DNA of 25,307 nt from a virus. Lineage: Duplodnaviria; Caudoviricetes. Positions 3,991-15,221 of the stretch are shown here, in pieces; within the stretch, counting starts at the first letter, position 1; each line of letters opens with the position of its first letter. The stretch covers positions 1 to 25,307 of IMG/VR virus record IMGVR_UViG_3300020045_002937, one strand, 5' to 3'. A program made the translations under genes and the position numbers. Below the pieces are notes generated by a model. It saw only the letters and a program-made list of their open reading frames with translations. It was not told where the DNA came from and made no database searches.

Positions 3991-4504
3991 TGACGATTAC
4001 TCCCGAATTGAGGGGCTTGTAACGAAGGTAATGCTTCCACGTTCCCGTAGTTGAGCCGACCCCGATAACAAGTTTGAGCGTACCGGCATTAACGATGATT
4101 TTGTTCTGAGCTACCAGACCAAGCTGCACACCACCAGCCGCCGCCAATGAGATTGTCGGAGCCGTTGTTAGCGCAGTCGGCGTGAGGATGAGCGTCGCCC
4201 CGGCAGCGATAGAGGCAAGCGTAGATGTAGCGCCAGATATGGTCTGCGCCGATCCAACCGTCGGGACAGACTGCCATTGCATTGTCGATGCCGTGGCGTT
4301 ATTAGCAGAGATACACTCGGAATGCAACGACCAAATCTGTATTGGCCCGCCAGCGATGGTGAATACAATGTCACCGTTGACCATGACCTTAGCGTCAGAG
4401 CTAATCGGCTGCTCGTCAGCATCGCCAGCAAGTCGAGCGCCGGAACGGTTGTACCACGTACCGTTCACAAACATATCATTGGGGCTTGTTCCTAGCGGCA
4501 TCAT
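3983..4504 (-). CDS. Hypothetical beta-rich protein between terL and portal (173 aa)
   Basis: Start overlaps the terL stop (ATGA); end overlaps the portal start by 8 bp. Confidence 0.7.
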   Translation of the reverse strand: MMPLGTSPNDMFVNGTWYNRSGARLAGDADEQPISSDAKVMVNGDIVFTIAGGPIQIWSLHSECISANNATASTMQWQSVPTVGSAQTISGATSTLASIAAGATLILTPTALTTAPTISLAAAGGVQLGLVAQNKIIVNAGTLKLVIGVGSTTGTWKHYLRYKPLNSGVIVSV

Positions 4505-5886
4505 TCTTCCTTTGCTCTGCGGTGAGCTTTCACCAGTTCATCGAATGTCTGTAACTGCGGGAACCTTGGCTGAATGTCCTTTGGTATAGGCTTCTGCCAC
4601 GGTCGAGACATACACGCATAGCGCCAATCATCGGCGGCGTGGTCTTCCATTTCGGTGTCAATGTCTTCAGGGTGTAACTCGTCGTGTTGCATCAGCGGTA
4701 TGGTTCTGATGCTGTCCACGCACGTACTAAAGCAGTAAATCATCGGGGAATCGTCGCCAACGAACCGCTGGCGCATCTGATCCCACCCGTTAATCCGCTG
4801 GTTGTCTGCTCGTCTCCACAGAACACCATGCTTTAGCATCCGTTCTGCTATTGACGGCCCGCCATCCACCTTCCAGCAGCTAGGGTCAGCCACCGAGTAC
4901 GCAAACCGTTCACCGTTATCGCGCTTCACGATTCCGACAGCCACTTCATCAGCCGATAACTTCAAGCCAATATTGGGTTCGCTCGCTCCGTACCATTCCC
5001 TGTATCGGATGATTGCCCCGCGAGGATGATCTGTCTCGCCGTTGGCAATAGCCCACCAACCAACAGAGAACGGCCTAGCAGAACCCCAATCGAACGACCT
5101 GAACCGTGACCATGCGTCAGGTATCGTGAAGGGCCGGATAACGTGCTTATCCCGTTGCCAGCAGTCAAAGAATGCCCCGGCGATTACATCCCAATCACCG
5201 TCTAGCCATGCCTTGACCAACTCAACCGAGCCGGACGACTTCAACAGGCTGATGTATTGCTTGTTGTCTTTCAGATACTTGTTATCGGTAATCTTTGACG
5301 GTATGAAAACACGCGTAAGCCCTGTGTCTTTGTCCGTATAGGGCATGTAAGGCGGCGCTACGTCGATAAACCGCGCCTTCACCCATATGTGCCCTTTGCC
5401 GCCAGGGTTCCCGCCCGACCTGATGCGCCCCTGTATTCCTGCCGAGTTACGCAGACACCCTTTTAGCTTGTTGTAGCCATAGGGCGTTGCGTGATTCGTT
5501 AGCTCATCAAAGCCAATCCAGGTATATTGATGCCCCTGATACCCGTCTGCGTCTCGCTCATGTTCAAGATAGCGCATCTTGAGCGTCGAACCGCTTGGAA
5601 AGTACCAGCAGTTACTAAACGGAAACTCTGCGCTTGGCTGTGCTTTGAACGCGCCACCATAATCGGGGAACAACTCACGCGCCCTGATTTGTAGTTCTTC
5701 CAGCTCGTTGTACGTCTTGCGGAACAGGATGCCGCGCCACGCAGCGCCTAGATTGATCCCCTCAAGATAATCACCCAAGAGGTAATCAGACTTCCCACCA
5801 CCTCGCGCACCACCAAAGAACAGTTCGTCAATGAACTTGGCGGTTATTGCGCTACTCTGCGGCCCCGCTTGTGGTTCCCAAGCCAT
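4501..5886 (-). CDS. terL: Terminase large subunit
   Basis: Walker A GGARGGGKS, Walker B IGFDE, NPGG coupling region, nuclease motifs FDWG and EDHAADDWRY. Confidence 0.95.
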   Translation of the reverse strand: MAWEPQAGPQSSAITAKFIDELFFGGARGGGKSDYLLGDYLEGINLGAAWRGILFRKTYNELEELQIRARELFPDYGGAFKAQPSAEFPFSNCWYFPSGSTLKMRYLEHERDADGYQGHQYTWIGFDELTNHATPYGYNKLKGCLRNSAGIQGRIRSGGNPGGKGHIWVKARFIDVAPPYMPYTDKDTGLTRVFIPSKITDNKYLKDNKQYISLLKSSGSVELVKAWLDGDWDVIAGAFFDCWQRDKHVIRPFTIPDAWSRFRSFDWGSARPFSVGWWAIANGETDHPRGAIIRYREWYGASEPNIGLKLSADEVAVGIVKRDNGERFAYSVADPSCWKVDGGPSIAERMLKHGVLWRRADNQRINGWDQMRQRFVGDDSPMIYCFSTCVDSIRTIPLMQHDELHPEDIDTEMEDHAADDWRYACMSRPWQKPIPKDIQPRFPQLQTFDELVKAHRRAKEE

Positions 5887-6151
5887 GCGAGGCCATCCAT
5901 TCGTCTTTGGTTAAGTCAGGCACTACAACGTGAGCGTGATTCACCGTCCCTGAGTGTTCTGTTTTCTTGTCTATCTCAGTCGGGGCATTACTCACTACCT
6001 TGTTGAGCAGGAACTTTGCCGCGTCGATTCGGGTCTGATTTACCTCGCCACCGTTAAGTGCATGATTTTGTACGAAGTTTATTAACTGACTGGCCTGTAT
6101 CTTTGCCTTTACATCTTCCTGGTGATGCGGCCTCAATCTCTTAGCCATCAC
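5852..6151 (-). CDS. terS: Terminase small subunit (putative); ATG at 6148 is an alternative start
   Basis: 99-aa helical ORF directly upstream of and overlapping terL; C-terminal KTEHSG motif common in terS. Confidence 0.65.
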   Translation of the reverse strand: MMAKRLRPHHQEDVKAKIQASQLINFVQNHALNGGEVNQTRIDAAKFLLNKVVSNAPTEIDKKTEHSGTVNHAHVVVPDLTKDEWMASHGLGTTSGAAE

Positions 6152-6315
6152 TCCACCCCGAAATCCGGCTGACGCTCCAGCAAGTCTATGCGCTGGTTCA
6201 GCAGATCAATCGTCTCAATGAGGATGCGCACGGCCTCGAATAGCTTGTCCATCTCAGTCTTTGGCTTGCATGTGCAAGGCTTTAGCAAGTCCTCTATGAT
6301 CTTGGCGCGTCTCAT
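6148..6315 (-). CDS. Small hypothetical protein (55 aa, MRRAKIIEDLLKPCTCKPKTEMDKLFEAVRILIETIDLLNQRIDLLERQPDFGVE)
   Basis: Hand translation, below the ORF-track cutoff; GGAG upstream; stop coupled to terS ATG (TGATG). Confidence 0.6.
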   Translation of the reverse strand: MRRAKIIEDLLKPCTCKPKTEMDKLFEAVRILIETIDLLNQRIDLLERQPDFGVE

Positions 6316-6353
6316 GGGTCATCTCCGAGGGGTAGCCCTTGGTTGATAGATAT

Positions 6354-6395
6354 AAAAAAGCCCGCCGGTCGCGAAGTCGCAACCCTAAAGCGGGC
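6354..6395 (-). terminator. Intrinsic terminator closing the structured leader
   Basis: Minus strand GCCCGC...GCGGGC stem with inner hairpin GCGACTTCGC, followed by T6. Confidence 0.7.
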
Positions 6396-6427
6396 AAACT
6401 CTGCTTGTGGCAGAGAGGAGGGAGAAC

Positions 6428-6553
6428 TATTGGTGGCCGGTGCTGATCTCCGGCTTTCTACTCGCTGTTTCGTCCGCTGCTTGCTCGGTACAGAACGGCA
6501 GTTGCGGCCCGCCTTCCTCCGTTCTTGCGTATCAGCCTACGCATTCACCAATA
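6428..6553 (-). ncRNA. tRNA-like structured RNA module (not a canonical tRNA)
   Basis: Closing stem TATTGGTG/CACCAATA; D-like hairpin GCGTA-GGCTGA-TACGC; inner stem AGAACGG/CCGTTCT; T-like hairpin GCCGG-AGATCAGCA-CCGGC followed by CACCA. Confidence 0.6.
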
Positions 6554-6680
6554 CGGCTGGCGACTCACTAGACTGCGCAATCTAGCCCGTTCGGGTTTCC
6601 AATGGCCCGACATCGATGTGCTGGTTCCGTTTCCGGCTTGTCAGTCATCCGTGTAGTAACAGTTGAATCGCCATGCGTAT
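6551..6680 (-). ncRNA. Long-stem structured RNA module
   Basis: ATACGCATGGCGATT (6680-6666) pairs with AGTCGCCAGCCGTAT (6565-6551) with one 2x2 internal loop, enclosing ~100 nt that contains smaller hairpins. Confidence 0.55.
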
Positions 6681-6862
6681 TAGTGCCGGTTACGACTCCG
6701 GCTACAGCGTTTCGGCCTGTACGCGAGATCCCTAACCCGATTGGGCGCGGTTCGTCATCCGCTTGGCTCCACCTCTTTGCGATTGACGAGTCAGGGTGGA
6801 CATTGCTCCAATTAGCCGACCACGGCCCCGGTTACGTTGCGAGTCGGGTTTGCGCCGTGGTC
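6678..6862 (-). ncRNA. Multi-hairpin RNA module ending in a second T-arm-like hairpin
   Basis: Stems GACCACGGC/GCCGTGGTC (6818-6862), TCCACC/GGTGGA (6768-6800), GCGG-ATGACGAA-CCGC (6747-6762), TACAG/CTGTA (6703-6721), GCCGG-AGTCGTAA-CCGGC (6685-6702). Confidence 0.5.
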
Positions 6863-6902
6863 TAAAATTGGTCTGTTATCGTGCTGTTTCCGGCTTAATA
6901 GG

Positions 6903-7103
6903 CTAATTCTGGTCGAGTGCGTCGTAGTCGACTGCCGTGTGGTAACAACCGCAAGCCAGTCCATACTTTTCCTGCTTGCAGGTGCAGTCTGCCGGTAGCT
7001 CTTCTTCACGCTCGACAAAGGGAACCATGTTCGCCGGGTCGAAGCGTCCAACGTTAAAACGGAATCCGCGCCAACCCGGTTGCAGGATTTTGTCGTGTTC
7101 CAT
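6903..7103 (-). CDS. Small hypothetical Cys-containing protein (66 aa from ATG 7103)
   Basis: 3' part of track ORF 6903..7220; the upstream part overlaps the promoter and terminator, so the start was moved to MEHDK; weak RBS. Confidence 0.4.
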   Translation of the reverse strand: MEHDKILQPGWRGFRFNVGRFDPANMVPFVEREEELPADCTCKQEKYGLACGCYHTAVDYDALDQN

Positions 7104-7125: not shown

Positions 7126-7155
7126 AAAAAAGCCGCCGATATTTCTAAGGGCGGC
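7126..7155 (-). terminator. tR'-like intrinsic terminator just downstream of the late promoter
   Basis: Minus strand GCCGCC-12nt-GGCGGC followed by T6. Confidence 0.75.
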
Positions 7156-7191: not shown

Positions 7192-7220
7192 AAGCTACTC
7201 TCATTTAGGATATATGTCAA
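7192..7220 (-). promoter_or_regulatory. pR'-like sigma70 late promoter
   Basis: TTGACA (7220-7215), 17-bp spacer, TAGCTT (7197-7192); overlaps the stop of the Q-like gene, the expected lambdoid position. Confidence 0.65.
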
Positions 7221-7489
7221 TACATCACTCCTTTCCGCTGAAAAGAGTGCAGCAGTTCAACGTGAGCCAGTGCCAGCGCATTCTCGTAATCGCGTAACTC
7301 ACACCGAAGTTGCAGGTACTTGTGCAGGATTGCCGACTTCTGTATTTCGGGAAGGTCATCGACACAGGTATCGACTATCCGGCATCGCTCCAAGTCTGCG
7401 GTTCGGCACATCTCGTCGAAAGTGCTTGAGACATAGCCCGACTGAAACCCTGCCGAACTGGATGGATACCCTAGCCTGTTGCTTCTTCC
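7217..7489 (-). pseudogene. Q-like late antiterminator/regulator, 5'-truncated
   Basis: Frame reads GRSNRLGYPSSSAGFQSGYVSSTFDEMCRTADLERCRIVDTCVDDLPEIQKSAILHKYL...; upstream it runs into the inverted ninB copy and hits TGA without a start; sits directly before promoter+terminator. Confidence 0.6.
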
Positions 7490-8436: not shown

Positions 8437-8820
8437 GTGAGAAAACATGAATTAGTAGGCTGTCCGCAATGGCTGCTCGATGCCGACACCGAAAACGAAG
8501 ATGTTGTTTTTGATGATTACGGAATCCTTCAATGGCGCAGCGGCGACTTCAGGGGCGGCAACTTCTGTGGCGGCAACTTCTGGGGCGGCAACTTCTGGGG
8601 CGAAAAACTCAGCAAAAAACCGCAGACCCTTTACGGCCTTGAATGGGTTGTTTACATCACAAAAGAACAAATGCAAATCGGTTGCCAGCGCCATACCCAT
8701 TCCGAATGGGAAGCGTTTGAACCCGCCGACATCAAGAAAATGCACGACAAGGCGTTTGACTTCTGGATGACGTGGCGTACTCCGCTGCTGATGATGTGTA
8801 TGCAGCATCGTGAGTCCTAG
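8437..8820 (+). CDS. Pentapeptide-like (GGNFx) repeat protein with C-terminal IGCQ.H...EW domain (DUF5758-like)
   Basis: Four 5-aa repeats followed by QIGCQRHTHSEWEAF; G-rich SD-like sequence upstream. Confidence 0.7.
   Translation: MRKHELVGCPQWLLDADTENEDVVFDDYGILQWRSGDFRGGNFCGGNFWGGNFWGEKLSKKPQTLYGLEWVVYITKEQMQIGCQRHTHSEWEAFEPADIKKMHDKAFDFWMTWRTPLLMMCMQHRES
8539..8601 (+). repeat. In-frame 15-bp tandem repeat, about 4 copies (GGCGGCAACTTCTGG)
   Basis: agcggcgacttcagg / ggcggcaacttctgt / ggcggcaacttctgg / ggcggcaacttctgg / ggc. Confidence 0.95.
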
Positions 8821-14558: not shown

Positions 14559-14782
14559 TGTTCCTGACTGACGCCGAAATAGTCACGCTGACCGGCTACC
14601 ATATCCACGCCAAACAGCGAGAGTGGCTTGACCTGAACGGTTGGACATTCGCACAGTCGCACTCAGGGCGTCCAATAGTCGGCAAGGCATACGCTGACCA
14701 ACGGCTAGGGCTTTCGACCTCACCAGCGCCTCAGAAACGAGCCTGGACGCCGAATCTTGCAGCATTCGCCAAGAGAGCCTAG
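14555..14782 (+). CDS. DUF4224-family putative excisionase
   Basis: MFLT..EI..LTG......Q..WL...G..F.....GRP.V pattern, directly upstream of the integrase. Confidence 0.8.
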   Translation: MMFLTDAEIVTLTGYHIHAKQREWLDLNGWTFAQSHSGRPIVGKAYADQRLGLSTSPAPQKRAWTPNLAAFAKRA

Positions 14783-14783
14783 C

Positions 14784-15221
14784 ATGTTACAAATGGGACG
14801 CCGCCGACAGACTAGACTAGACCTACCGCCACGGATGCAGTTCAAACATGGCGCGTACTATCACGCCTCAAGTAAAGCCCCGCGAAAATGGACGCGGCTG
14901 CATTCCGACTTGAACCAGGCGCGGGTGCTGTGGGCTGAGATCGAGAACGTAAGGCCAAGCGATACACCGCTAGTCAATGACTTGATTGATCGCTGGCTGG
15001 TCTCGCCCCATGTCAAGAAGCTATCGGCCAACACAATGAAGGCTTACGAGTCCGCTGCCAGGGTGCTGCGTGTGTTCTTCGATAACGCAAGATTGTCAGC
15101 CATAATTACAGAAAACGCATGTAAGCCGATGAATTTATTGACGATCGTACTAGTCAACTGTCTTCAAAAATGGATAATTACCTGCCCTGTAACCCGCATG
15201 GCTGCGTGGGGTGCCCGATAA
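14784..15221 (+). pseudogene. int: Tyrosine integrase, N-terminal part only; integrase-like sequence ends near 15105
   Basis: MGRRR....DLPPRM..KHGAYY......KW.RL..DL..A...WA arm-binding pattern and LSANT..AY core-binding start; no catalytic R-H-x-x-R-Y domain. Confidence 0.75.

Follow-up and report, generated by a model that had tools for sequence, protein, structure and literature searches.

A row of exchangeable non-coding RNA modules, one of them tRNA-shaped, in the late leader of a tailed phage

What does a tailed phage keep between its late promoter and its terminase genes when no convincing protein is encoded there? This question is raised by IMG/VR virus record IMGVR_UViG_3300020045_002937 (Duplodnaviria; Caudoviricetes), positions 1 to 25,307 of which (the window) were analyzed; the 25.3-kb record has an estimated completeness of 66%. 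On the minus strand, the remnant of a gene in the slot of the late regulator Q is followed by a promoter candidate, a first terminator, an open reading frame (ORF) of 66 aa, the array under study (6354-6862), an ORF of 55 aa, a probable small terminase gene (terS), the large terminase gene (terL), and a portal gene (Table 1). A preliminary description, made from the letters alone, had read the array as tandem copies of a tRNA-like unit closed by an intrinsic terminator. As detailed below, the array consists of non-coding RNA modules, each conserved independently and open to exchange, which stand in a row in the late leader; one of these, module K, is a real and widespread phage RNA family that is neither a tRNA nor a member of Rfam.

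Folded as minus-strand RNA, region 6345-6900 reached -202.5 kcal/mol (z -2.67; one of 100 shuffled sequences folded equally well), in line with the structured stretch first noticed there. The signal is uneven: most of it comes from 6690-6546, the first hairpin, and the 3′ tail, with z values of -3.37 for module C, -4.57 for the 3′ tail, -1.58 for module K, and -0.18 for 6676-6815. The intrinsic terminator was recovered at the array end as a stem (6395-6360) with a U-run, forming at p~1, of which a simple scan had found the inner hairpin only. ARAGORN predicted no gene, and Rfam gave no match at E ≤ 1, the tRNA family RF00005 included. The proposed absence of a coding sequence between the late promoter and terS held for 6354-6862, and not for its surroundings, where the two short ORFs lie. 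The three ORFs crossing 6354-6862 had no PHROGs or Pfam match, and protein coding was rejected for the stretch because it lacks family matches and its homologues have just module ends in common. The repeated GCCGG motif noted earlier occurs exactly twice (6702-6678 and 6454-6428, minus strand) and in none of 100 shuffles, a control that is post hoc, since the pattern was derived from this very sequence.

By blastn, 105 phage records had short matches to the stretch, each spanning less than 80% of the query, and those listed fall on two short segments. A single large RNA of the GOLLD or ROOL type was rejected as well: no INPHARED record covers at least 80% of the region, only module ends match, and relatives exchange modules. 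In the two phages nearest by terS, K copies occupy the same slot with differing neighbors. The slot before terS is a swappable array of RNA modules. Rather than tandem copies of one unit, it holds four differing elements in the window, one of which is K; the tRNA likeness originally extended to the whole array stands for module K, which has tRNA geometry and occurs in tRNA slots, and falls for the other elements. The comparison bore out a non-coding, modular stretch with strong covariation among homologues, compensatory changes being found in both K and C.

Module K comprises a closing stem, P1 (6552-6546/6435-6429), an AAU linker, a D-like hairpin (6542-6527), a 72-nt insert (6526-6455), and a T-like hairpin (6454-6436). 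The 7-bp closing stem is stacked on the 5-bp T-like stem without a linker, and the loops of the D-like and T-like hairpins are complementary (GCUGA/UCAGC). K resembles tRNA in this coaxial 7-bp plus 5-bp geometry, in the short linker to the D-like hairpin, in the loop contact, and in its genomic slots and strand. In contrast to tRNA, it has no anticodon arm (an insert of 12-162 nt stands in its place among 133 copies), no TTC T-loop, a Watson-Crick loop-loop helix, and no fixed CCA. The absent arm would argue against K as a decoy for anticodon nucleases specifically, one of the roles first suggested for the array.

The two ends of K travel together. Among the matches listed, 88 of 103 loci selected through the 3′ hairpin also have the 5′ hairpin (1.6% in shuffles); reciprocally, 88 of 100 selected through the 5′ part have the 3′ hairpin (0.4% in shuffles). 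Copies were gathered from the matches listed by exact patterns on one end, and the 172 so obtained reduced to 133 non-redundant ones, in which base pairs 1-7 of P1 are paired in 121-130 copies and base pairs 8, 9, and 10 in 84, 52, and 36, respectively. When 70 of these copies were aligned, 97.8% of the cells were paired and 16 of 22 pairs changed on both sides, a level reached in none of 500 shuffles; compensatory changes fell on 7/7 closing pairs, 4/5 pairs in each hairpin, and 1/5 loop-loop pairs, with no slid register coming close. The K covariance model scored the window copy, which is in its training set, at 83.1 bits (6424-6555), gave nothing at the upstream GCCGG hairpin, and scored locus L281 (an sRNA-17-type locus outside the training rows) at 80.7 bits. 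Hairpins and loops are near-invariant across phages of Klebsiella, Escherichia, Pseudomonas, and Erwinia. The inserts, by contrast, are hypervariable: similarity exceeds 0.7 in 14 of 8778 pairs, and structure is weak (median z -0.5).

The 3′ hairpin pattern of K occurs in ~1,900 IMG/VR stretches, and 946 of 5,426 E. coli genomes contain weak matches. Of 94 K loci, 13 have a tRNA within 600 nt, on the same strand as K in every case. In five phage records, K sites follow Q or lie within or beside tRNA genes, while the E. coli matches include a P1-like tRNA cluster, a pL leader, and another post-Q site; up to three copies occur per array, also between tRNA genes. A terminator follows within 130 nt in 34 of 125 copies (1.65 in shuffles, 13 upstream) and is absent from this distance in the other 91, and many copies end only ~10 nt before the terminator stem. 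Anti-Shine-Dalgarno-like motifs are not enriched in the K trailers (1/34 versus 3.4 in shuffles, and 4/91 versus 6.1). A taxonomic survey of genome contigs by a 17-nt pattern was rejected as mostly chance, with one strong full-length match (Roseateles) among the 80 loci scored, and the figure of 4,900 estimated by it was set aside.

Some inserts carry recognizable pieces. A T-loop motif is present in 6 of 133, where 0.8 would be expected and 200 shuffles gave at most 3; some of the six are related. The inserts with tRNA T-arm motifs are those of L233, L011, L071, L057, L047, and L086, and that of L233 resembles a tRNA without an anticodon arm, nested in K. Enrichment of a hammerhead core was rejected (1/133 versus 0.3 expected, not significant). 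By eye, hammerhead-like cores were seen inside the L043 insert and in the ZC08 tRNA cluster (L002, ~1730-1800), the latter without an Rfam report at the gathering threshold. In a P1-like plasmid (L280, 2820-3713), the ~0.9 kb after tRNA-Thr form an unannotated chain of modules, which is bracketed by CACAAC/GTTGTG strands and holds two strong K copies, one degenerate K, and one STnc100-like copy; the K model has three matches in the plasmid.

In the window, module K shares a strand with its upstream neighbor. Module C is a predicted processing stem, with a 10-bp lower stem (6685-6676/6555-6546), a CA/GC 2×2 internal loop, a 10-bp upper stem (6673-6664/6567-6558), and a variable insert. It was found in 65 IMG/VR stretches (inserts of 20-50 nt); 94.5% of the outer-stem cells are paired, with 94 compensatory cells against 32 in shuffles, whereas the count of pairs with a change is not above shuffles (273/500). 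The core of C, set by the search pattern in these stretches, also covaries, in register, in copies reached through K. The lower 3′ strand of C is at the same time the 5′ closing strand of K. This strand is complementary to both partners in 12/12 C-K tandems (collected by one pattern, window included; 8 distinct sequences), and a K copy is present in 31 of the 65 C loci, directly downstream in 27 (several redundant). Approached from K, an upstream partner for the shared strand exists in 28 of 109 copies, compared to 4.7 in shuffles and 5.0 with the strand of another locus, and the upstream helix usually continues ~9-11 bp beyond a small loop, as the foot of a ~20-bp stem. Full-length folding prefers the C-closed form by ~8 kcal/mol; with the upstream strand removed, K closes at p of at least 0.88. 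The closing helices of C and K, which draw on this one strand, are mutually exclusive.

RNase III substrates span about two helical turns of duplex and tolerate a small internal loop, as in stems of the T7 R1.1 type. The 10 bp + 2×2 loop + 10 bp of module C corresponds to this size rule, and the likeness to the R1.1 type extends to a single predicted 3′-strand cut that would free the downstream RNA. Module C differs from that type in that its lower strand would be reused to close the released RNA.

One member of the K family is known from earlier work as a small RNA (sRNA). The primers and probe for sRNA-17 of E. coli K1 RS218, from an mEp460-like prophage (PMC7719688), map onto a K copy: the two hairpins and the closing stem are the same, and a trailer and a terminator come after them, ~193 nt in all. 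This RNA was seen by Northern blotting with a probe antisense to the K strand, and its deletion altered tens of transcripts (PMC7719688). The primer based on rapid amplification of cDNA ends (RACE) starts at CGU, three bases before the 7-bp stem (PMC7719688, primer table). In a matching locus, this 5′ base, by eye, directly follows the mismatch in an upstream stem of ~19 bp and is ~280 nt downstream of a pL-like promoter; the equivalent position in the window is 6555. The two RNAs differ in insert and trailer, and sRNA-17 resides in a pL leader, whereas the window copy of K is in a late leader. The passages of that paper devoted to sRNA-17 present it as a single enterobacterial sRNA and contain no family model, tRNA-like fold, or processing (PMC7719688).

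The same layout of closing stem, AAU, hairpin, insert, stacked CCGG hairpin, and terminator recurs in STnc100 (RF02076), which is found in prophage late regions. Positions 31-147 of its model hold a 7-bp UGGUG/CACCA closing stem, an AAU linker, a 5-bp hairpin, an internal domain, a stacked CCGG hairpin, a trailer, and a terminator, and weak K-model matches overlap STnc100 matches. In the window, however, STnc100 had no match even at E ≤ 10 (gathering threshold 47 bits). Its T-like loop is AGGCA and that of K is AGAUCAGCA, so that the longer loop-loop helix of K is missing in STnc100; moreover, its model has a defined middle and no module C. STnc100 has been linked to PasD (10.64898/2026.05.13.724894), and together they are a sister family of K. 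PasD RNAs (PasD1/PasD2, EcOnc13) are stabilized by Hfq and have targets from the ligation and sequencing of interacting RNAs (RIL-seq), those of PasD1 sharing CUCACA (PMC8550237); PasD2 was found in CsrA chimeras (10.64898/2026.08.12.744399), and STnc100, for which no function is validated, has been reported from vesicles (PMC12370729). PasD1 starts at the closing-stem foot, one base upstream of the stem and possibly at its transcription start; its scaffold is degenerate (7.4 bits with the K model), and the trailer that separates this scaffold from the terminator contains the complement of CUCACA. The passages on sRNA-17, STnc100, and PasD in these sources mention neither module C nor a variable insert nor a fold like that of tRNA. 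The stretch has no Rfam match, yet it is in part already described: one member of K is the published sRNA-17, and STnc100 has the same architecture.

Other known RNAs were considered. T4 RNAs C/D, YrlA, the C4/CI RNA, and HK022 put are phage RNAs other than tRNA, stable or structured, that come from tRNA clusters or leaders. The first were rejected because the K model finds nothing in the T4 region encoding these stable RNAs (species 1 and 2), as were YrlA/Y RNA-like RNAs (RF02553) and C4 antisense RNA (RF01695), neither of which matches the window; C4 was detected elsewhere in L281 as a separate locus, so the search works. The window matches no Rfam family, with no search aimed at put. For isrJ, weak matches of 26-27 bits, mainly from the terminator, fell below the cut-off of 37, and it was also rejected. 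With default filters, Gifsy-1 yields no K copy at E ≤ 1, and its best unfiltered match reaches 10.8 bits. Literature searches by motif string or topic returned no description of the K family or of the C/K arrangement and no paper that connects K with STnc100, and the shared-strand arrangement is apparently undescribed. Four tables of Fremin et al. 2023 contain no match; its alignments were not covered, and K or C may be unnamed candidates there (PMC10690425).

Taken together, these observations suggest a working model. Late transcription would run through the array to the terminator at 6354, and C would close first because its partner strand is transcribed before that of K. A cut between 6556 and 6555, on the 3′ strand of C immediately beyond the internal loop, by a host double-strand-specific RNase (by analogy, probably RNase III or a similar enzyme), would then free the shared strand, allowing K to close its 7-bp stem and lock its loops. 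The product would be an RNA of ~200 nt (6555-6354), or ~125 nt if trimmed, whose conserved elbow could be bound by a host protein recognizing tRNA shape, with K titrating it or acting as a mimic; the insert would be free to vary, sometimes with pieces of other RNAs. Action by shape is favored because the elbow is near-invariant while insert and trailer vary, anti-Shine-Dalgarno seeds show no enrichment, and in most copies no terminator lies nearby. As a whole, the chain in which C is cut and K is released as a stable RNA acting by shape, not by decoding, is given an even chance of being correct. Strict release by RNase P at the first base of the 7-bp stem was rejected, since the two published ends disagree with it (sRNA-17 starts three bases and PasD1 one base upstream).

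Several points weigh against this model. K was found in only 2 of 80 terL-related loci, 78 having no K match, and 81 of 109 K copies have no clear upstream partner, so that C is not required. The C/K energy gap leaves out the kissing interaction, which would favor K. Extraction of K copies demanded at least 4/5 pairs in both hairpins, and the search patterns fix parts of these hairpins, which inflates the pairing; the loop-loop helix is near-invariant (one compensatory change and 11 G-U pairs in 70) and hence weakly tested. An encoded N-CCA follows the K stem in 13 of 133 copies, though CCA might also be attached once the RNA is trimmed. The cut site is placed by one RACE-derived end, and in the locus that gave this end another module forms the upstream stem; sRNA-17 was also assigned its own ArcA-bound promoter (PMC7719688). 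Four raw-read runs on a homologue left the module uncovered and are uninformative on expression; 20 of the runs listed contain the homologue as contigs, 11 of them recorded as RNA, and were not counted as evidence. The host partner of the elbow is a putative tRNA-shape-binding protein.

Among the competing explanations, the main one alone has experimental precedent: K with its trailer and terminator may be an Hfq-dependent base-pairing sRNA, in which the tRNA shape does no more than stabilize the RNA and mRNAs are silenced through a seed located in its trailer or insert. This would accommodate the Hfq stabilization and shared target motif of PasD1 (PMC8550237), the trailer position of its complement, the transcripts changed by deletion of sRNA-17 (PMC7719688), and the window trailer itself, which is CU-rich, resembles an anti-Shine-Dalgarno seed, and precedes a terminator with a U-tail (6395-6354). 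However, such seeds are not enriched among K trailers, many copies leave only ~10 nt before the terminator stem or have no terminator in reach, the PasD1 scaffold is degenerate, and many copies are found in lytic phages, within tRNA clusters; an sRNA of this kind is possible, if on balance unlikely. Rather doubtful is a modular display, in which C would hold K open until a host nuclease cuts and K would then present its hypervariable cargo (captured tRNA T-arms and ribozyme cores among it) as diversified decoys against host RNA-recognizing defense or quality-control proteins.

The modules might instead act in cis on the nascent late transcript, through antitermination, pausing, or the timing of processing, with a C/K switch controlling terminator read-through before terS. 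Their position between late promoter and terS, the conserved and mutually exclusive helices, the frequent placement of K before a terminator, and its occurrence in a pL leader are compatible with such control, but the terminator is formed (p~1) whichever of the two predicted states applies, which makes a switch less likely, and K also stands between tRNA genes, in up to three copies per array, and is missing from most terL relatives; cis action is therefore considered improbable. It is quite improbable that the array is largely passenger RNA, that is, tRNA-derived or captured stems, easily processed, harmless, and reshuffled by recombination at shared strands: near-invariant hairpins and loops across hosts, compensatory changes in three helices, and three-way matching at the shared strand imply selection, even if inserts are hypervariable and weakly structured, presence is patchy, and CRISPR interference on P1 trnT, just upstream of the array with K copies in the P1-like plasmid, found it non-essential in the laboratory (PMC10695390). 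A signal at the level of DNA, with hairpins serving recombination or packaging, would agree with the nearly equal folding of the two strands (-196 versus -198 kcal/mol), yet G-U pairs work on the transcribed strand, all 13 nearby tRNAs lie on the strand of K, and one member was detected by Northern blotting (PMC7719688), making this reading extremely improbable.

Module K is common yet unannotated. Viewing sRNA-17, STnc100, and PasD as one tRNA-shaped architecture would provide a structural frame for prophage sRNAs that are now studied singly, and the conserved strand shared by C and K yields a precise prediction of how phages excise non-tRNA RNAs from polycistronic leaders. This prediction bears on the old question of what role non-tRNA RNAs play in phage tRNA clusters.

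Table 1. Features of the late leader and adjoining genes in the window
Feature	Position	Strand	Basis or remark
Late-regulator (Q-slot) gene, probable, 3′ part only	7217..7474	-	Open frame; putative regulator by position
pR′-like promoter candidate, TTGACA-17 nt-TAGCTT	7192..7220	-	Read from sequence; putative
tR′-like terminator, GC stem + U-run	7126..7155	-	Sequence and fold; z just -1.73
66-aa ORF preceding array	6903..7103	-	Without family match
Module A, GC-rich hairpin with CGUAACC element resembling that of module B	6820..6860	-	z -2.54
Linker, weakly folded, small stems	6722..6815	-	z -0.18 for 6676-6815
Module B, twin hairpin: variable 5′ hairpin abutting GCCGG-A(G/A)NCGUAA-CCGGC hairpin	6685..6721	-	Pattern scan
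Module C, predicted processing stem	6546..6685	-	Covariation and fold
Shared strand, pairs with 6685-6679 (closes C) or 6435-6429 (closes K)	6546..6552	-	Complementarity
Module K, tRNA-shaped RNA	6429..6552	-	Covariance model, alignment
3′ trailer: CU-rich 6424-6415 + 6-bp hairpin	6399..6428	-	Sequence and fold
Intrinsic terminator closing array	6354..6395	-	Fold
55-aa ORF	6148..6315	-	Without family match
Terminase small subunit, probable	5852..6151	-	Immediately precedes terL; no family match at E ≤ 0.001
Terminase large subunit	4501..5886	-	PHROGs and Pfam PF03237

Of the remaining modules (Table 1), B is the better represented. Its 3′ hairpin is the upstream copy of the GCCGG motif and a recurrent element distinct from K; it occurs in an estimated ~270 IMG/VR stretches, and the abutting 5′ hairpin is present in 45 of 50 distinct contexts, compared to 23.5 in shuffles (maximum 33). 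Rfam gave no match to C or B in the 20 loci scanned. No homologue was found for the 5′ 140 nt of the stretch, which comprise module A and the linker: a metagenome pattern scan for A returned 83 chance-looking stretches without an adjoining tRNA, and the linker had no blastn match among the loci collected by then. Further recurrent unannotated elements were seen elsewhere, namely, a stem-closed module starting GCGGCGGCGTGGAA and a hairpin with a GGAAAGAC loop (L373 ~2020-2145; L372 ~1985-2010; flanks of L290, L295, L296, and L342). Rfam abiF matches lie directly behind K copies in L262 (401-437, strong) and L372 (1832-1867, weak), and a small ORF inside the RNA array of L373 (2269-2481) presumably resembles the H-NS C-terminal domain.

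Relatives of the probable terS precede terL in 14 of the 80 terL-related loci, in which neither the 66-aa nor the 55-aa ORF had a tblastn match; both also lack a family match (Pfam for the former). The second hexamer of the promoter candidate matches at 3/6 positions, and hence it was absent from a simple promoter scan. Three proteins of 112-120 aa are related to the Q-slot gene product (47-65% identity; no PHROGs family), a search found no longer relatives, and the pairwise comparison with the gene of L372 was not significant. The 5′ end of the Q-slot gene is missing, being cut off at an inverted duplication of 141 nt (7481-7620/8092-8232; 97.9% identical) that contains part of ninB and lies more than 600 nt from the array; ninB is directed away from the late operon. 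The duplication is perhaps an assembly chimera or a rearrangement. No cI/cro/O/P block was recognized among the window ORFs scanned. A perfect 32-nt inverted repeat at the contig end (24998-25029/25276-25307) is possibly a second chimeric junction. An integrase-like ORF (14757-15221, plus strand), which follows an excisionase, has just 154 aa and appears truncated, and a 127-aa ORF (8437-8820) contains four short G-G/F repeats (8541-8600, plus strand) resembling pentapeptide repeats.
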